DNA from: a virus
Lineage: Duplodnaviria > Heunggongvirae > Uroviricota > Caudoviricetes
Length of the DNA stretch: 21,416 bases
Reading direction: 5' to 3' (one strand)
IMG/VR virus record: IMGVR_UViG_2579778894_000023
Coordinates: 1-21,416 of that record
Positions 7,641 to 21,416 of this stretch are shown here, piece by piece (the stretch's first letter is position 1; each line of letters begins with the position of its first letter). The notes under the pieces are model-generated. The model did not search any database and was not told the origin of the DNA. It saw nothing but the letters and a program-made list of their open reading frames with translations. The position numbers were made by a program, and so were the translations under genes.

Positions 7641-8048
7641 AATTATCTCCATTTTTACAAATGAATTTTGTCGATGCGGTGCCTGGTGCCTCCAGGTGAC
7701 GTTAACCAGTTAACAATTAACGCCGGATAATCCACCCATAACACTGATGCTTTTAACTGTGCCGCGTGCGCTTAGCCGCATTCACCGCATCACAAAATTC
7801 ACTTTAAAAAGGGGCGGCAGGGCAGCCACGGAGTAGAACTGATGCCGCCAAAGACTACACATAGCAATGTCGTTATTTACAACCGGAGGCGCACTCCCAC
7901 CATTTAAATTTAACAGACAAGACCGACTCTTTATGGATACCGGAAATGCGCCTTCGTGTTGTGCCCGGTTTTATTTCACCACCTCCGGGCTTTGGTGGCC
8001 TCGGCTATACCCCTACAGCAAGAATATTGAATTAATCCAATAAATGGT

Positions 8049-14961: not shown

Positions 14962-15184
14962 GAAGGAAACAAAACAGAAACAACAATTGCCGTTATCTGT
15001 TGTTACCATGGCAAGTAAACGTATCTCAGGCGAGCGCATTGCGCCGTTCTGACGCAGATAAATTAGCCTGGATAGATGGTGCTGGCAATAAAAAATAGCG
15101 TTTTCTTATCGGTGTCGGTAAGATTGCTGCGGGTGCTTGAGGCTGTCTGCCTCGGGCATGCCACTGTAAGGCAGACAGAGAAAA

Positions 15185-15285
15185 GCCCCAGTTAACATTA
15201 CGCGTCCTGCAAGACGCTTAACATTAATCTGAGGCCATATCTATGCGACACATAGAGATTAGCCTCTTACGGACCGAAAGGTCAA
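15185..15285 (-). ncRNA. Candidate sok-like antisense RNA and its promoter (approximate)
   Basis: Minus strand reads TTGACC (15285-15280), 18-bp spacer, TAATCT (15261-15256); predicted start ~15249 would make an RNA complementary to the mok-like start region. 3' end not defined. Confidence 0.25.
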
Positions 15286-15302
15286 GGAGAAGCAGGCTAT
15301 GA
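15243..15302 (+). CDS. Candidate mok-like leader ORF (19 codons) coupled to hok
   Basis: ATG 15243 lies inside the hairpin ctatg-cgaca-catag; ORF MRHIEISLLRTERSRRSRL ends in TGA overlapping the hok ATG (cTATGAag). Confidence 0.3.
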   Translation: MRHIEISLLRTERSRRSRL

Positions 15303-15942: not shown

Positions 15943-16013
15943 TATTGGCATTAATTCTGGTATACTACATAACGGGCTGAACACCCATTCTACTGCGCCA
16001 GCGGAGAACTACG

Positions 16014-16613
16014 ATGGCGCATATACAACTGGTCAAACAAACCTCTTCAGGATTACTTCTCCCGGCGACGCCGGAGAGTTGCGATTTTTTGCATCAAATA
16101 AAAATAGGTGAGTGGATACACGCAGACTTTAAGCGTGTGCGTAACTACGCATTCCACAAGCGTTTTTTCAAACTCCTGCAACTGGGATTCGATTACTGGA
16201 CTCCGGTCGGTGGGGCGATCACGCCTCGCGAACGAAAACTGGTATCAGGCTTCGTTGATTACCTGTGCGAATCAGTAGGTCGGGAACATACACCAGCTCT
16301 GAGCGAAGCCGCAGAGCAATATCTGAATACAGTTGCAACACGCAGAACCCGGGATACGGCATTGCTAAAGTCGTTTGACGCTTTCCGCGAGTGGGTAACC
16401 ATTCAGGCCGGATTTTACACCGAGCATATTTATCCGGACGGTAGCCACGGGCGTCGGGCGAAATCCATCGCTTTTGCGAATATGGACGAAACCGAGTTTC
16501 AGCAGGTTTATAAAGCCGTACTGAATGTGCTGTGGAACTGGATCCTGTTCCGTAAATTCTCCTCTCCGGAGGAAGTCGAAAATGTGGCCGCGCAGCTGCT
16601 GGAGTTTGCGTAA
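16014..16613 (+). CDS. Nin-region phage protein (possibly DUF1367 family)
   Basis: 199 aa; SD GGAGAA; sits directly upstream of the YbcO-like gene and Q, as in nin regions. Family name is from memory and uncertain. Confidence 0.65.
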   Translation: MAHIQLVKQTSSGLLLPATPESCDFLHQIKIGEWIHADFKRVRNYAFHKRFFKLLQLGFDYWTPVGGAITPRERKLVSGFVDYLCESVGREHTPALSEAAEQYLNTVATRRTRDTALLKSFDAFREWVTIQAGFYTEHIYPDGSHGRRAKSIAFANMDETEFQQVYKAVLNVLWNWILFRKFSSPEEVENVAAQLLEFA

Positions 16614-16903
16614 TGGTGGATTTACGTAAAGCGGCAAAAGGTCAGATGTGTACAGTCAGAATTCCTGGCTACTGCAATCACAATCCCGAAACGTCCGTGC
16701 TGGCGCATTACAGGCTGGCGGGGACGTGTGGAACAGCGACAAAACCACACGATATGCAGGCAGCGATTGCCTGTAGCTCATGCCACGATTTAATCGACGG
16801 GCGGGTAAAAAACAGCGATTACACCAAAGAAGAATTACGCCTGATGCATGCAGAAGGTGTTTTTCGCACACAAGAAATCTGGAGAAAGGAAGGTTATTTA
16901 TGA
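16613..16903 (+). CDS. YbcO-like (DUF1364) Cys-rich putative nuclease
   Basis: 96 aa; DLRKAAKGQMCTVRIPGYCNHNPETSVLAHYRLAGTCG...IACSSCHDLID matches the recalled DLP12 YbcO pattern; ATGA-type overlaps on both sides. Confidence 0.75.
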   Translation: MVDLRKAAKGQMCTVRIPGYCNHNPETSVLAHYRLAGTCGTATKPHDMQAAIACSSCHDLIDGRVKNSDYTKEELRLMHAEGVFRTQEIWRKEGYL

Positions 16904-17454
16904 TTTACCCAACAAATACAGGCAAAAGCGGGGAACACCTTCGTCTCACCACGCTGGAAAGTGTCTGGATTCAGGGAAAACTGCGCATGTGGGGGCGCTG
17001 GTCGTATATTGGCGGCGGTAAGACGGGAAATATGTTTAACCAGTTGCTGGCATCCAAAAAATTGACGAAAACAGCCGTCAATGAAGCCCTGCGCAGGATG
17101 AAAAAAGCGGGAATAGAGAAACCTGAGCTGGAAGCGTTTTTGCGGGATATGATCAACGGCAAGCAAAAAAGCTGGCTGGTGCATTGTACTGATGCAGAGG
17201 CGTTATGCATTGATCGGGTGATTAGTGAAGTGCTGGCAGAACACCCAGGATTGATTTGTATCCTCCGGCAACGATATGAAGGGCGGGGGATGAGTAAGCG
17301 CAAAATGGCTGAATTGCTAAATGATGCACACCCTGAGTGGTGTTTTCGGACGTGCTGCAGTCGGGTAGATGTATGGCTAAATCTTGCTGAATATATGCTC
17401 TATCTGCCGATGCGTGATGCATTCTCTTCCGGGTATTTAAAAACTGTCTGTTGA
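16900..17454 (+). CDS. Late-gene antiterminator Q (Q-like family)
   Basis: 184 aa from ATG 16900 with SD AAGGAAGG; followed by a strong promoter and short-leader terminator (PR'/tR' layout); weak resemblance to recalled Q-family motifs (LES.W...WGRW, C.DAEALCI). Confidence 0.65.
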   Translation: MIYPTNTGKSGEHLRLTTLESVWIQGKLRMWGRWSYIGGGKTGNMFNQLLASKKLTKTAVNEALRRMKKAGIEKPELEAFLRDMINGKQKSWLVHCTDAEALCIDRVISEVLAEHPGLICILRQRYEGRGMSKRKMAELLNDAHPEWCFRTCCSRVDVWLNLAEYMLYLPMRDAFSSGYLKTVC

Positions 17455-17479
17455 CTCAATCTGTTATCCGGGGCTATAT
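17450..17479 (+). promoter_or_regulatory. Late promoter PR'-like
   Basis: TTGACT (17450-55), 18-bp spacer, TATATT (17474-79), overlapping the end of the Q gene. Confidence 0.55.
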
Positions 17480-17540
17480 TCCTCACGCGCCAGCAAAATC
17501 TGGCGTCGGGATTAGGAACCCCGGATAGAGACCGCGACAG

Positions 17541-17566
17541 ACACACGCCGCGAGCGTGTTTTTTAT
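17541..17566 (+). terminator. tR'-like terminator of the short late leader RNA
   Basis: acacgc-cgcga-gcgtgt followed by tttttt, ~80 nt after the predicted PR' start. Confidence 0.65.
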
Positions 17567-17727
17567 TGTCGTATGCACGCGCACATCTGAATTATGGTGG
17601 GGCGTATGGGGGAGCTGAAAAGCTCGCCGGTTGGTTTCCCGGTAGTTCCTAACCCTGTACGTCTCACCACCCGATGATTAGGAACCTGACGGTGGTGATG
17701 GTTTAGAAACCACCAGAGGGCGTCATT

Positions 17728-18309
17728 ATGACAACTCAAATTTCTGTTGAAACTCTCTCCCCGATCACCCATAACCAGATTCCTGTTATTACCACCGAAC
17801 TTTTGGCGCAGTTGTACGGTGCTGAAGTTAAGAACATTCAAAATAACTACGCCAGAAATGCTGAGCGCTTTATTGAAGGAAAGCATTTTTTCAAAGTGGC
17901 TGGCGATGCCCTGATAAATTTGCGGGTAGCTTTAAACTACTCACAAAATTTGCAACCATCTTTAAGAGGGTTACAAATTTCCCCGAAAGCCCGCTCCCTC
18001 ATCCTCTGGACAGAACGCGGAGCAGCCCGTCATGCCAAAATGCTCGAAACCGATCAGGCGTGGGATGTGTTCGAAAAGCTGGAAGACTGCTATTTCAGAC
18101 AAAAGGATCCGTCAGCGCCAGTTTCATGCCAGAAAAGTTACGACACGCGAGTTCTCTGTTATCAGCGAGGCGGTGTCACTGTTTCCACAATTCAGTTGCG
18201 GGATGATGATATTGTTATTTCCCTTGAGTCATGGCTGGAACTGGCGAGAGCCAATGGTTGGTTTGTTGTTCGCAGAGATAAACTGGTGGAAAGGCTGATG
18301 CAGCTTTAA
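17728..18309 (+). CDS. ORF6N-domain DNA-binding protein (moron between Q and lysis genes)
   Basis: 193 aa; ITTELLAQLYGAEVKNIQNNYARNAERFIEGKHFFKV matches the recalled ORF6N pattern (LAELYGV..+.LNQAVKRN..RFPEDFMFQL). Confidence 0.75.
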   Translation: MTTQISVETLSPITHNQIPVITTELLAQLYGAEVKNIQNNYARNAERFIEGKHFFKVAGDALINLRVALNYSQNLQPSLRGLQISPKARSLILWTERGAARHAKMLETDQAWDVFEKLEDCYFRQKDPSAPVSCQKSYDTRVLCYQRGGVTVSTIQLRDDDIVISLESWLELARANGWFVVRRDKLVERLMQL

Positions 18310-18404
18310 AAAACTTCTTGCATTTTTGCACATAAACTGCTTCAATTCCGGTACGCTTCGCAAAGCTGTATCGCGAGGCGAATCAAGCGCATGAACTTTA
18401 CCAG

Positions 18405-18433
18405 AACCCGCCATTGAGCGGGTTTTGTTGTTT
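18405..18433 (+). terminator. Rho-independent terminator after the ORF6N gene
   Basis: aacccgc-cattga-gcgggtt followed by ttgttgttt. Confidence 0.6.
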
Positions 18434-18646
18434 CTGACGGATAGAAAAATGAAATAGCTAAATAAAAAGAATGCATTGGATGCCATATATTGGCAACGTG
18501 ACGACAGCGTTAATCTGGTCGGGCTCCCATGGCGACGTAGTGAGGGAGAGGAAGCGTAAAGCATCACTGAGTTACGGTTGGCACCCGGTTTAACGCGTAA
18601 GTGGCCTGATAAAGAGATAGTGCGCCGCGGCACTCACAGCGGCAAC

Positions 18647-18670
18647 GATTAACTGACCTCGGCATTTGCC
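18647..18670 (+). terminator. Second rho-independent terminator upstream of the holin gene
   Basis: cctcggc-attt-gccgggg (one G-U pair) followed by tttttt. Confidence 0.5.
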
Positions 18671-18804
18671 GGGGTTTTTTATTTAAGGCCGCAGACAGGC
18701 CCATTTAGTGCAACGCCTTTCCCCGTTTCCGCTCCTGGAATATTCGGGGATTTTTTATTCCCTCAATTTGCACCCGCGATATGTGCGAGGTGAGAGATGA
18801 TGAA

Positions 18805-19140
18805 ATGCCTCATAACCCAAATACCTGGCCGGACTGGCTGGAGTTGTTTCAGAGCTGGGGGCGTGGAGACACTCCGCTGGGCGCAGTGATTATGTCGATC
18901 GTTATGGCTGGTTTGCGCATCGCCTATTTTGGCGGTGATGGGGGCTGGAAACGAAAAACGCTTGAGATTTTGCTCTGTGGTGCCCTGACGCTGACCTTTG
19001 CATCCGCGCTTGAGTATGTCGGATGGCCTAAATCACTTTCTGTTGCCATTGGTGGTGGGGTGGGGCTGATTGGTGTTGATGCTATTCGTGGTGCGGCAAT
19101 GAGGGTCATCGGTAACAAGTTCGGTGCCCATAAGGAGTAA
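18805..19140 (+). CDS. Class I holin (lambda S-like, three predicted TM segments)
   Basis: MPHNPNTWPDWLELFQ...VIMSIVMAGLRIAYFGGDGGWKRKTLEILLCGALTLTFASALEYVGW... parallels lambda S topology; in-frame upstream ATG at 18781 would add MCEVRDDE. Confidence 0.8.
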   Translation: MPHNPNTWPDWLELFQSWGRGDTPLGAVIMSIVMAGLRIAYFGGDGGWKRKTLEILLCGALTLTFASALEYVGWPKSLSVAIGGGVGLIGVDAIRGAAMRVIGNKFGAHKE

Positions 19141-19143
19141 TTA

Positions 19144-19620
19144 ATGCAGACACTTAATTCCCAGCGTAGAGCTTTCCTTGATATGGTGGCATGGTCAGAA
19201 GGAACAGATAACGGACGGCAGAAAACCAGAAATCACGGTTATGATGTTATTGTCGGCGGCGAACTGTTCACTGATTACTCCGATCACCCCCGCAAACTTG
19301 TCACGCTAAATCCGAAACTCAAATCAACAGCCGCCGGACGTTACCAGCTTCTTTCACGCTGGTGGGATGCCTACCGCAAGCAACTTGGCCTGAAAGATTT
19401 TTCTCCAGAAAGTCAGGATGCTGTAGCGCTGCAGCAGATTAAAGAGCGTGGCGCTTTACCGATGATTGACCGTGGCGATATTCGTCAGGCAATTGACCGT
19501 TGCAGCAATATCTGGGCGTCGTTACCTGGTGCAGGTTACGGTCAGTATGAACATAGAATCGGTGACCTGATTGCCCGATTTAAAGAAGCGGGTGGGGTGG
19601 TAAATGAAGCTGAGATATAA
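19144..19620 (+). CDS. R: Endolysin, lambda R-type lytic transglycosylase
   Basis: 158 aa, nearly identical to recalled lambda R (NSQRRAFLDMVAWSEGTDNGRQKTRNHGYDVIVGGELFTDYSDHPRKLVTLNPKLKSTAAGRYQLL...). Confidence 0.95.
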   Translation: MQTLNSQRRAFLDMVAWSEGTDNGRQKTRNHGYDVIVGGELFTDYSDHPRKLVTLNPKLKSTAAGRYQLLSRWWDAYRKQLGLKDFSPESQDAVALQQIKERGALPMIDRGDIRQAIDRCSNIWASLPGAGYGQYEHRIGDLIARFKEAGGVVNEAEI

Positions 19621-19996
19621 GCTGGTTATTGTTGCCTTCTTTGTTACCGTCATCGGTTCTTTTATCTGGTCTGCCGGGCATTACTACAGCAAATATCAAC
19701 ACGAAAAGGAGCGCGCTGATGAGGCTGTACGAAATGCTGAATCAGCAACAGCCATTACCCGTAACGTCCTGCAATCACTGCAAATCATCAACACAGTTAT
19801 AGAGGCTAACCAGCATGCAAAACAGCAGATCGCACTGGAGTCACAGAGAACCCAGGAAGATATCAAAGTGGCTGTTGCGGATGATGATTGCGCTGTTCGT
19901 ATCGTTCCTTCTGGCGCAGTTAAGCGGTTGCACGAATACGCGAACGGTATACGTGTCGGTGCCGGTCGTTCCGTTACCATCCAGTCTGACGGATGA
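19604..19996 (+). CDS. i-spanin (Rz-like): N-terminal TM helix plus periplasmic coiled-coil
   Basis: 130 aa; TM segment LVIVAFFVTVIGSFIW; start overlaps the endolysin end; position after R. Confidence 0.75.
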   Translation: MKLRYKLVIVAFFVTVIGSFIWSAGHYYSKYQHEKERADEAVRNAESATAITRNVLQSLQIINTVIEANQHAKQQIALESQRTQEDIKVAVADDDCAVRIVPSGAVKRLHEYANGIRVGAGRSVTIQSDG

Positions 19997-20159
19997 AACA
20001 CCCCGGCCAGATTTACCCGACCCGTTTACGTGGGGAGCCAGCCTTAACCTGAATGTTGCGTTGTTGTCAGCGTTAGCACAGTGCAACAGGGATAAGGCTG
20101 ATATCAGGACTTTTGAGAAAAACAGGGCAGCACAAACCAATGGCACGATTAAACGTTGA
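19815..20159 (+). CDS. o-spanin (Rz1-like lipoprotein), overlapped rather than embedded
   Basis: +1 frame within the Rz-like gene; lipobox LLAQLSG-C; proline-rich mature part (VPVVPLPSSLTDETPRPDLPDP); extends 163 nt past the Rz-like stop; SD AGAGG 9 nt upstream. Confidence 0.6.
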   Translation: MQNSRSHWSHREPRKISKWLLRMMIALFVSFLLAQLSGCTNTRTVYVSVPVVPLPSSLTDETPRPDLPDPFTWGASLNLNVALLSALAQCNRDKADIRTFEKNRAAQTNGTIKR

Positions 20160-20325
20160 AGTTATCCCACCAGACAGCGAAACGATGAACGGGATTTTTG
20201 CAGAGATTGAACGTAAATATGCGCATCAGCCGATGACGCCAAAAGTTATCGATGAAATGCAACGCGAAGCGGCGCGCCTTGTACGGCGAGCGACAAACAC
20301 GAAGGTTACGTTCGTTCGGGACTGA
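20140..20325 (+). CDS. Small hypothetical protein between spanins and terminase
   Basis: 61 aa from ATG 20140 (MARLNVEVIPPDSETMNGIFAEIERKY...); weak SD; overlaps the o-spanin 3' end by 20 nt. Confidence 0.35.
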   Translation: MARLNVEVIPPDSETMNGIFAEIERKYAHQPMTPKVIDEMQREAARLVRRATNTKVTFVRD

Positions 20326-20385
20326 CATTACAGAAGCTCCTTTGATAAGGGGCTTCGATAATGTTAACAACTTGTGGAAACCATC

Positions 20386-21003
20386 ATGGCATCGAAAAAG
20401 CTAACGGCAGAACAGCAGCGCCTTTTCGATGTGCTGACTCCGCTTCAGAAAAGATTCAGCTTAGCCATTATCAAGGGCAAGAATCAGACAGAGGCTTACC
20501 GCAAAGCCGGAGGGAAAGCGAAGGGCGACAACCTCCGCAAAGCTGCGCACGTAATTGCGACAAATTGCGACGTTCAGGCGTTCATTAAGTCTGTTCAGCG
20601 TGAAATCATCGATGAGGCCATCATGACCCGCGAAGAAGCTCTTAAGCGTTTGTCTAAAATAGGCCGTGCTTCAATCGCCGATATCGCCGAGTTTAGTAAT
20701 AGCATCGTGGGGGAGGATGAAGACGGGAATCCTGTCTATCAAGCCGTCTGGAGCTTCAAGGATTCTTCCCTTCAGGATCCTGACGCGATGAGCGCAGTAT
20801 CAGAACTGACCTCAGGGAAAGATGGTATCAAATTGAAGATGCACGACCCGAAAGCAGCAATAAAGCAGTTGGCTGAATTGCAGGGGTGGGAAGCACCTAA
20901 GAAAACCGAACTGACTGGCGCGGAGGGTGGACCGATCAAGACCGAGACAACCAATCTCACCGCAGATCAGGTCGCAGAGATTTACCGCAAAATGATGGGG
21001 TGA
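20386..21003 (+). CDS. Terminase small subunit
   Basis: [67 protein letters not shown] follows the recalled TerS N-terminal pattern (KKLT.KQ..F...Y......A...AGYS...A...); lies directly upstream of TerL. The track start at 20374 is a GTG. Confidence 0.75.
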
Positions 21004-21005
21004 TC

Positions 21006-21416
21006 ATGCCTCTTCCGTTTAAATTCGATTTCAGAAACCCTGATTACCAGATGGTTTTTGAATGGCGGATGGAACGCTTACAGCGCATTCGCCAGAACCC
21101 TGAAATATTGCCCGTATTGAAGCAGTTTTACCGAACCAATCCGGCTCAGTTCATCATCGACTGGGGCATGACAACGGACCCGCGTAATATTGATTATGGC
21201 CTGCCGGTGACCATTCCGTTTTTACTCTTCCCTAAGCAGGAGGAGTGGATCCACTGGATTATGGAACGCTGGGGCAATCGGGAGAATGGTATTACCGAAA
21301 AATCCCGTGAAATGGGGCTCAGTTGGACCGCGATCGGACTGGCCTGCTCGCTTTGTCTCTTCAACAAAGAAATGGTTATCGGTTTCGGCTCCCGTAAAGA
21401 GGAATACGTCGACAGC
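21006..21416 (+). CDS. Terminase large subunit, N-terminal part (ORF runs off the window end)
   Basis: Open frame from ATG 21006 ([61 protein letters not shown]...) with SD GGGGTGA; 3 nt after the TerS stop. Absent from the ORF track because it has no stop in the window. Confidence 0.75.

Follow-up and report, generated by a model that had tools for sequence, protein, structure and literature searches.

A portable RNA cassette in the probable late-operon leader of a lambdoid Escherichia coli prophage

Introduction

What occupies several hundred untranslated base pairs placed directly before the lysis genes of a prophage? The question is posed by a 21,416-nucleotide stretch of viral DNA (IMG/VR record IMGVR_UViG_2579778894_000023, positions 1 to 21,416; hereafter the window), which belongs to a lambdoid Escherichia coli prophage adjoining ryeA/sdsR. 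An ORF6N antirepressor-like gene, identified by Pfam, runs to 18309, and a holin gene starts at 18805; between them lies the untranslated gap considered here (18310–18804). A first reading of the letters, the original prediction, described it as a non-coding gap between a moron and the lysis genes, with two intrinsic terminators (T1 and T2) bracketing an interval that could encode a small RNA (sRNA) released by termination at the second hairpin. From comparison with related loci (named L001, L002 and so on), we conclude that the gap is probably the 5′ leader of a Q-dependent late (lysis and morphogenesis) operon, in which a portable accessory non-coding RNA cassette is lodged between T1 and T2. 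The cassette couples a Shine–Dalgarno (SD) sequence and a mini open reading frame (mini-ORF) of a few codons to a conserved multi-helix core. The first reading of the T1–T2 interval included neither the SD and mini-ORF nor the portability of the cassette across operon leaders.

A structured RNA between two terminators

The absence of a credible open reading frame (ORF) between the terminators, as originally claimed, is confirmed. Neither the 40-codon ORF on the plus strand (18471–18593) nor the 134-codon ORF on the minus strand (18229–18633) has a Pfam match. Homologues carry frame-breaking indels of 1–3 nt within the conserved core, none of the reading frames stays open throughout the family (24 of 48 members for the best one), and the variable positions lack 3-periodicity (9/9/10 and 10/9/11). 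In most sister genomes, PGAP annotates no gene in the gap.

The interval is conserved at the level of RNA. When the window was aligned with loci of wholly different surroundings, one block proved almost invariant, with unalignable flanks. Its centre is a multi-helix core of ~100 nt on the plus strand (18497–18597), which is built by helices P_a (18498–500/18594–96), P_b (18502–05/18518–21), P_c (18524–28/18544–48), P_d (18549–55/18561–68), and P_e (18575–77/18585–87). Mean column identity in the core is 85% across contexts with unalignable flanks, and the window copy reaches 133.8 bits with covariance model R1 (18493–18608). The covariation score over 74 distinct sequences reaches 0.103, compared with 0.060 ± 0.003 for column shuffles (0 of 500 reach the observed value) and at most 0.029 when the pairing partners are slid. 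Five pairs have changed on both sides, with C-G to A-U in P_b, U-A to C-G in P_c, and C-G to U-A or G-C in P_e, and the plus strand is identified as the RNA strand by G.U pairs that never vary and by U.G intermediates. The core thus displays the hallmarks of a structured non-coding RNA: compensatory pairs, strand-specific G.U pairs, and no coding signal. An extra hairpin is found exactly in the apical loop of P_d in three members. This 17-nt insertion, GGCGC-AUA-GCGCU, is present in L093 (1366–1498), L106 (1102–1234), and L115 (4719–4850), whose P_e sequence also differs (UGGAC.../...CCCGA), and the three form a divergent subfamily.

Several other pairings were considered and set aside. A long-range helix, GCGUUAA/UUAACGC, is paired in 92.9% of cases, shows no double changes, and is no better than P_a; the minimum-free-energy (MFE) helix CGUAA/UUACG of the window is not conserved in other classes, as judged by inspection of the alignment. 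No complementarity of the core loops to the SD region or to T2 was found by eye, and the resemblance of the core words CGUAG, CGGUUGG, and AUCAC to the 3′ end of 16S rRNA is too weak to use.

The 5′ end of the cassette lies at 18440–18457 on the plus strand. It contains an SD, degenerate in the window (GAUAGAAAA; GGAGGAUGG in relatives), and the mini-ORF ATG AAA TAG (18449–18457). The boundary falls directly after the GTTTCTG of T1, where phage vB_EcoS-666R9 diverges into a protein moron. Among 51 distinct upstream sequences, 48 have the order of a leader minigene: SD, a spacer of 7–9 nt, ATG, 0–4 sense codons, and a stop. The predicted peptides take the forms MK*, MKH*, MKQ*, MVH*, MHN*, MVY*, MV*, and M*, and the codons vary by synonymous and stop-codon changes (AAA/AAG, TAG/TAA). 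The stop is found 1–5 nt before a hairpin, H1 (GCGG-AUAGA-CCGC), that follows the mini-ORF in most lineages. A reading of H1 as a boxB is rejected, because the class D leaders have boxA-proximal hairpins of their own.

A second hairpin, H2 (18481–18495, plus strand; UGCCA-UAUAU-UGGCA), abuts the core. At this position, 38 of the 42 distinct sequences keep a hairpin, in which the stem takes 22 different forms, such as UGCCU/AGGCA, CCUGA/UCAGG, and GCCCUG/UAGGGC, and in L010 it contains a U.G pair compatible only with the plus strand. Downstream of the core, the domains are lineage-specific. Many members outside E. coli continue with a CCGG-GNRA-CCGG hairpin and then a GCCAC/GUGGC hairpin; in the subclass of the window both are replaced by a single hairpin (AGUGC-GCCGCG-GCACU; 18619–18634, plus strand), identified by sequence comparison and MFE folding.

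T2 forms the 3′ end of the cassette on the plus strand (18656–18684), with a stem ACCUCGGCA/UGCCGGGGU at 18656–18675 and a U-tract to ~18684. Its fold has a free energy of −15.4 kcal/mol (z −4.59 versus shuffles), and the hairpin is kept across sister subclasses by compensatory changes (ACCUCGGCA/UGCCGGGGU versus GCCUCGGUA/UACCGGGGC), some of which have the hairpin without a U-tract. T1 (18405–18433, plus strand) has a stem AACCCGC/GCGGGTT at 18405–18424 and a U-tract to 18433; it folds with −16.1 kcal/mol (z −4.75) and is kept downstream of at least three different Q/promoter types. Each has a run of 4–6 U inside a longer U-rich tail, as expected of an intrinsic terminator, and in a consensus scan of 16000–21416 the two are the top-ranked terminator-like sites. 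Both predicted terminators are therefore real; T1 lies exactly where it had been placed, and T2, put at 18647–18670, was located ~10 nt too far 5′. A third terminator-like site, at 18733–18758, is no better than chance (z −1.0).

Distribution and genomic contexts

Enterobacterales prophages, viral contigs, and phage-plasmids together yielded ~118 cassette loci in pattern scans and in searches with covariance model R1. The cassette was found in 42 IMG/VR viral contigs and then in 33 more, in 21 metagenome contigs, in 38 E. coli genomes, including ~48-kb phage-plasmids, and in 12 species-representative genomes (Pectobacterium, Photorhabdus, Erwinia, Pantoea, Citrobacter, Enterobacter, Buttiauxella, Salmonella, Symbiopectobacterium, and one contig labelled Martelella). 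The last, L061, is titled Martelella alba, an alphaproteobacterium, and is the only record from outside Enterobacterales; it is likely a case of contamination or mislabelling, as its N_peptide gene and boxA neighbours look enterobacterial and lambdoid. In a blastn comparison with 50,697 deposited phage genomes, the cassette was never matched, whereas the segment around T1 and its upstream promoter (described below) matched 7 records and the boxA leader 113.

Each locus has one copy, always co-oriented with the flanking genes on the coding strand, and a search of the window and 130 loci with R1 for a further, divergent copy, as in the putL/putR pair, gave none above E ~0.4. One IMG/VR contig, 3300022758_000254 (15.4 kb), holds two different copies, L015 and L036, of subclasses A2 and A1, in opposite orientation near the two contig ends; the contig may have two late leaders, or its assembly may be chimeric.

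Two groups can be recognised among the 65 distinct contexts. In 28, an intrinsic terminator directly precedes the SD, and 22 of these also have a terminator after the cassette. This terminator-bracketed group comprises late leaders with at least three Q/promoter types and different holin families downstream, plus the phage-plasmids. The second group, of at least 22 contexts, has no terminators and carries a boxA (CGCTCTTTAACAA) 150–290 nt upstream. Here the cassette lies behind a pL-like promoter with a repressor operator, downstream of a LexA/CI-like repressor gene. In L061 and L064, the gene that follows encodes an N_peptide antiterminator, and L054 has a weak, sub-threshold match to this family; elsewhere the product has a RelA/SpoT domain or is of unknown family. 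In L008 (3306–4379) and L075, the RelA/SpoT-domain gene is directly after the cassette; from its domain, the product may be a CapRel-like defence toxin, in which case the RNA may head a defence moron.

The slots themselves have exchangeable contents. The boxA-proximal 165 nt are common to cassette contexts and to Stx2a phages of the PA2/TL-2011c/P13374 type, in which the slot holds isrK, C4, and an antirepressor gene in place of the cassette. In phage PA2 (L086, 1380–2110), a pL-like promoter is followed by boxA TGCTCTTTAACAA, the 165-nt leader, isrK, C4, and a Rha/antirepressor gene. The same layout recurs in TL-2011c, P13374, and ~100 Stx2a phages, with no N-like ORF visible in ~600 nt, which suggests that these phages have a long boxA-protected non-coding leader. 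Similarly, tRNA-Ile genes occupy the same Q–holin or phage-plasmid intergenic tracts as the cassette (L004 3992–4067; L005 1337–1412), consistent with such tracts being general slots for RNA genes. The slots after tR′, the classical site for morons, and after nutL/boxA, ahead of N or other early-left genes, are thus exchanged among protein morons, tRNAs, C4-type immunity RNAs, and the cassette RNA.

The cassette is therefore portable and optional cargo, always in the sense orientation and always behind an antitermination loading site (qut/tR′ or boxA/nut). It is optional because the promoter and T1 segment of the gap matches 1188 E. coli records, while just 38 of 5426 genomes contain the sequence past T1, and because related phage-plasmids share only the downstream terminator and carry the cassette in 4 of 65 cases. 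It may belong to the accessory repertoire (host interaction or anti-defence) rather than to core phage regulation.

A predicted, displaced late promoter upstream of the cassette

The first ~125 bp of the gap lie next to a mosaic junction. In a blastn comparison of the window with the sister prophage L002 (APEC-O117H42), collinear homology extends over 16000–17355 and 18308–19300; between the two blocks are 74 bp in L002 and 953 bp in the window. The extra DNA holds an alternative Q C-terminus, the isrK promoter and isrK, a C4 RNA, and the ORF6N gene, and the two Q proteins are 89% identical, with the differences concentrated in the C-terminal third. Judging from this alignment, an immI-like cassette (17355–18309) has recombined into the last ~33 codons of the DUF1133-type Q, separating Q from its presumed late promoter. 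The mosaic junction at 18308–18317 is the right end of this ~950-bp isrK-C4-ant cassette, which corresponds in E. coli to the antQ-isrK-orf45-anrP locus of Gifsy-1. The altered C-terminus of Q may affect promoter specificity.

In relatives without isrK-C4-ant, a homologue of 18317–18436 starts only 5–15 bp 3′ of the Q stop codon (L002, L003, L010, L087, and phages H27–H31, with vB_EcoS-666R9 and four related phages among those in which this segment comes right after Q). The predicted late promoter thus lies directly downstream of Q in the relatives, and in the window it is displaced by the 953-bp insertion. This does not agree with a view of the gap as a spacer within a transcript that comes from the moron.

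The predicted late promoter, pR′ (18318–18346, plus strand), consists of a −35 element TTGCAT (18318–23), a 17-nt spacer, and an extended −10 made up of TGc (18338–40) and TTCAAT (18341–46). At the predicted transcription start lies a −10-like TACGCT (18352–18357, plus strand). Alignment of 22 distinct versions revealed two divergent sequence types of the segment, both of which keep TTGnnn-17-TGcTTSAAT, TAYGCT (TACGCT or TATGCT) 5 nt further on, and the T1 hairpin. At lambda pR′, a promoter-proximal sigma70 pause element is used for Q loading, and by analogy TACGCT is a candidate for a sigma70-dependent pause element of this kind. The first ~125 bp of the gap would then have the architecture of a Q-dependent late promoter with pause element and tR′, its activity being predicted from sequence. 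Because the start of the gap follows Q in relatives and the extended −10 architecture is conserved, T1 is most likely the tR′ of this promoter.

Transcription from pR′ to T1 would produce a short RNA of ~80 nt (18353–18433, plus strand) with a 5′ hairpin at 18354–18380 and a fold of −29.3 kcal/mol (z −2.84). A full-length isrK model match at 18355–18428 is not significant (11.6 bits, E 7.4), and the Rfam isrJ model matches neither this RNA nor the gap.

The gene map of this common type of E. coli prophage is thereby corrected: the predicted late promoter and tR′ are placed inside the gap, displaced from Q, and the revised map predicts which deletions will and will not affect lysis control. Since two genuine terminators precede the holin, endolysin, and Rz genes, a terminator-resistant polymerase should be needed to reach them, in agreement with the original prediction that the lysis genes depend on antitermination.

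A model for the leader and its alternatives

In the model that we favour, pR′ in the absence of Q would yield the ~80-nt RNA ending at T1, any read-through would stop at T2, and the holin would remain silent. Once Q is loaded at the promoter-proximal pause, polymerase would pass T1, the cassette, and T2 into the lysis genes, and the cassette would be transcribed as the first ~250 nt of the late mRNA. Lacking its own promoter and found only behind antitermination loading sites, the cassette would be made as RNA only within antiterminated, lytic-cycle transcripts. The mini-ORF, if translated, may load a ribosome that insulates folding from the variable upstream RNA, stabilises the 5′ end, or melts H1. 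The invariant core may be the docking site of a conserved factor from host or phage, either in cis on the leader or after excision, as for the C4 RNA and phage tRNAs that reside in the same slots.

Several observations weigh against this reading. The pR′ hexamers are weak (7/12 consensus; 3/6 and 4/6), a consensus promoter scan of the window did not report the site at 18318–18346, and Q may instead act at the promoter directly after its gene (17451–17480, 10/12). In folding energy, the core does no better than its shuffles (z +0.27; −1.16 for the whole interval). Because the core is so conserved, double changes are seen in only 5 of 24 pairs and most pairs never vary, and the alternative long-range helix fits about as well as P_a. 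Lastly, the subclass of the window lacks H1 and has a degenerate SD (GACGGAUAG instead of GGAGGAUGG), so that this copy may be partly decayed; it does keep the mini-ORF (18449–57), H2 (18481–95), the core (18497–18597), and T2.

In a very unlikely reading, the cassette is a functionless, decaying remnant, such as a pseudogene or recombination scar, that looks conserved only through recent kinship. Most E. coli copies are indeed >92% identical, the window copy has lost H1 and SD strength, and the core has an unremarkable folding energy. Yet the core remains ~85% identical across Photorhabdus, Pectobacterium, Erwinia, Pantoea, Salmonella, Citrobacter, and E. coli, where the flanks cannot be aligned; compensatory changes occur in P_b, P_c, P_e, and H2; the hairpin insertion is confined to a loop; and the SD–ATG–stop order is kept despite changes in codon identity. 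This reading is already disfavoured, and of the alternatives, all of which rank below the accessory leader RNA, it is the only one that comes close to exclusion.

More credible, though still unlikely, is the stand-alone gene of the original prediction, in which an sRNA of ~190–250 nt is released at T2 and acts in trans, with host or phage mRNAs as its targets. A strong T2 directly follows the conserved RNA, the late-leader and phage-plasmid copies are bracketed by terminators in a typical moron architecture, the Q-to-lysis regions of prophages host sRNAs such as IsrJ and IsrK, and the cassette is accessory cargo. But a promoter scan found no sigma70-like promoter between T1 and the core, only ~10 nt separate T1 from the SD, and in at least 35 of the 65 contexts the core is followed directly by N or other genes, with no terminator in between. 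Some late-leader subclasses have the T2 hairpin without its U-tract, and a strong SD with a mini-ORF would be unusual for a base-pairing sRNA. Hence, the proposal that the interval holds a small RNA survives as an RNA-level element, on the strength of conservation and covariation, whereas release by termination at T2 is not general; an accessory leader RNA is favoured over a free-standing sRNA gene.

We consider it less likely still that the cassette is a cis-acting sensor, a riboswitch-like element or a ribosome-dependent attenuator that decides whether transcription stops at T2 and so imposes a metabolic or translational checkpoint on the lysis genes, with the variable 3′ domains as alternative expression platforms. 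A highly conserved, aptamer-like core followed by lineage-specific domains would suit such a device, as would the 3′ CGC with its two mutually exclusive pairings (P_a versus the GCGUUAA/UUAACGC helix) and a mini-ORF that stops 1–5 nt before H1, an arrangement shared with translational attenuators; minigenes in leaders are known to modulate the genes that follow them (PMC3262186, PMC8708949). By inspection, however, there is no convincing anti-terminator pairing with T2, and no Rfam riboswitch matches. The early-leader copies and most non-late contexts lack a terminator, and polymerases that reach the cassette should already carry a Q or N/Nus modification and resist terminators, so that a switch based on termination would have no purpose.

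It is rather improbable that the cassette works like HK022 put, binding RNA polymerase as an RNA-based processive antiterminator or anti-pausing element and so reinforcing or replacing N or Q in long phage operons. Such a role would explain why the cassette is always in the sense orientation in the 5′ leaders of both kinds of operon that need processive antitermination, and why many pL-leader contexts have no N gene immediately downstream; put itself acts without protein factors from the same positions (PMC9378689). Against this, the cassette has no resemblance to put in sequence or architecture (put has no ribosome-binding site or mini-ORF), and HK022 was not matched in the phage collection. 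In late leaders, the cassette lies downstream of T1 and cannot aid passage through tR′. It also coexists with Q, boxA and, in some phages, N, and it is optional within otherwise near-identical prophages.

Returning to the accessory leader RNA, it is conceivable, although we hold this only tentatively, that the SD–mini-ORF–core cassette represents a genuinely new functional class of phage RNA that acts on a conserved host machine in lytic growth. It would be a ribosome-loaded, tRNA-sized, multi-helix RNA made only from N/Nus- or Q-antiterminated transcripts and spreading as a portable 'RNA moron'. If so, it might act on RNA polymerase or Nus complexes, on the ribosome, or on a defence system that targets RNA. 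An RNA cassette of ~118 loci that is coupled to a mini-ORF and placed behind an antitermination loading site is in any case unusual and experimentally tractable.

Neighbouring genes and RNAs of the window

Upstream of the gap, the window encodes DUF1367, YbcO, and a DUF1133-type Q (~16900–17454), which is weakly related to Pfam Phage_antitermQ. The promoter-like site directly 3′ of Q (17451–17480) reads TTGACT-18-TATATT and is followed by isrK (17487–17564, above the Rfam threshold), within a region that also has Rfam matches to c4-a1b1 (17474–17527) and the C4 antisense RNA (17590–17674).

Downstream of T2, the holin leader (18685–18804, plus strand) contains the weak hairpin at 18733–18758 and the SD GAGGUGAG (18787–94) that serves the start at 18805. 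The holin (Phage_holin_3_1 by Pfam, 18805–19140) is followed by the endolysin and Rz. Its start is that of PGAP in the sister genome L001 (3496, equivalent to 18805 in the window). L009 shares 18675–18790 and the holin, and its upstream DNA differs, so the holin leader is inherited together with the holin gene. There are two in-frame ATGs, at 18781 and 18805 (PGAP uses the latter), and an out-of-frame 30-codon ORF at 18797, beginning ATG ATG AAA, lies inside the holin start region (18781–18889). With the weak hairpin and U-run at 18733–18758 preceding the SD, translational control of the holin is possible.

Further RNAs at Rfam level in the window are found at 463–607, 2173–2351, 7812–7863, and 15131–15301 and include SraC/RyeA with SdsR/RyeB, RalA, DicF, and sok. 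The SraC/RyeA and SdsR/RyeB pair is at the prophage border, which is likely the integration site. RalA is an antitoxin RNA, DicF is on the minus strand in the early-left region, and sok adjoins a hokD-type toxin gene.

Comparison with known RNAs and leaders

The cassette fits no curated RNA family. Among the 4227 models of Rfam 15, including isrJ, isrK, C4, riboswitches, and ribozymes, none overlaps the core (18497–18597) at E ≤ 10 in the window or in L008. The only match between T1 and T2 at this threshold, to STnc480 (18439–18484; 18.8 of 72 bits, E 5.2), lies 5′ of the core and was discarded as chance. Nine member loci scanned with Rfam gave no cassette match at gathering score, ARAGORN found no tRNA or tmRNA in the window, and the Rfam tRNA model matched only genuine tRNA genes in L005 and L064. 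A full-text literature search with the invariant core words returned only unrelated primers, and the literature on put, minigenes, and start-stop elements yielded analogues only.

The lambdoid late-operon leader consists of Q, pR′, the qut pause site, lambda 6S RNA, and tR′. The gap shares with it a predicted promoter right after Q in cassette-free relatives, a −10-like element at the predicted transcript start, a strong terminator ~55–80 nt downstream and then the lysis genes, and a slot for accessory cargo after tR′. It differs in having the 950-bp isrK-C4-ant segment between Q and the promoter, a second strong terminator ~220 nt later, a DUF1133-type Q, and a promoter that would rely on an extended −10. 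The predicted ~80-nt RNA is a positional analogue of lambda 6S RNA and of Gifsy-1 IsrJ.

The Gifsy-1 locus has the gene order antQ-isrK-orf45-anrP-isrJ-lysis genes (PMC4825925). The window follows this order, with isrK, an antirepressor-like ORF, a non-coding interval with a predicted terminated small RNA, and the lysis genes. Unlike Gifsy-1, it has a C4-type RNA between isrK and ant, its interval lacks similarity to the Rfam isrJ model, and the conserved cassette has not been reported for Gifsy-1.

The C4 and CI immunity RNAs of P1/P7 and P4 (Rfam clan CL00128) are likewise structured RNAs in operon leaders, found in the same phage slots, processed from a longer transcript, and coupled to translation of a small upstream ORF. 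In contrast to them, the cassette has no covariance-model similarity, no recognised complementary target boxes, and a mini-ORF of only 1–4 codons. HK022 put, of ~70 nt and two stems, acts on RNA polymerase without protein factors (PMC9378689), and such RNAs are transcribed in cis in lambdoid pL/pR leaders in place of nut sites. The cassette is larger, with at least five helices and a mini-ORF, and unrelated in sequence, whereas put has no ribosome site and a proven action on RNA polymerase; given this architecture, and with no blastn match in 50,697 phage records that should include HK022, the cassette is not a put element.

Leader minigenes that modulate downstream genes (PMC3262186, PMC8708949), as in lambda bar, the EHEC LEE1 leader, and axe-txe, share with the cassette an SD, an AUG, one or a few codons, and a stop in an untranslated leader. 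Unlike the bar minigenes, the cassette mini-ORF is coupled to a conserved structured RNA, has start-stop variants, and usually encodes Lys after the AUG rather than carrying the rare AUA. The cassette therefore resembles the C4/CI RNAs in placement only and the bar and leader minigenes in the mini-ORF only. The terminators and the predicted pR′–tR′ unit are ordinary lambdoid features, and their displacement by isrK-C4-ant is a variant of the Gifsy-1 arrangement; the cassette, which is neither tRNA, tmRNA, nor put, is an undescribed RNA family.

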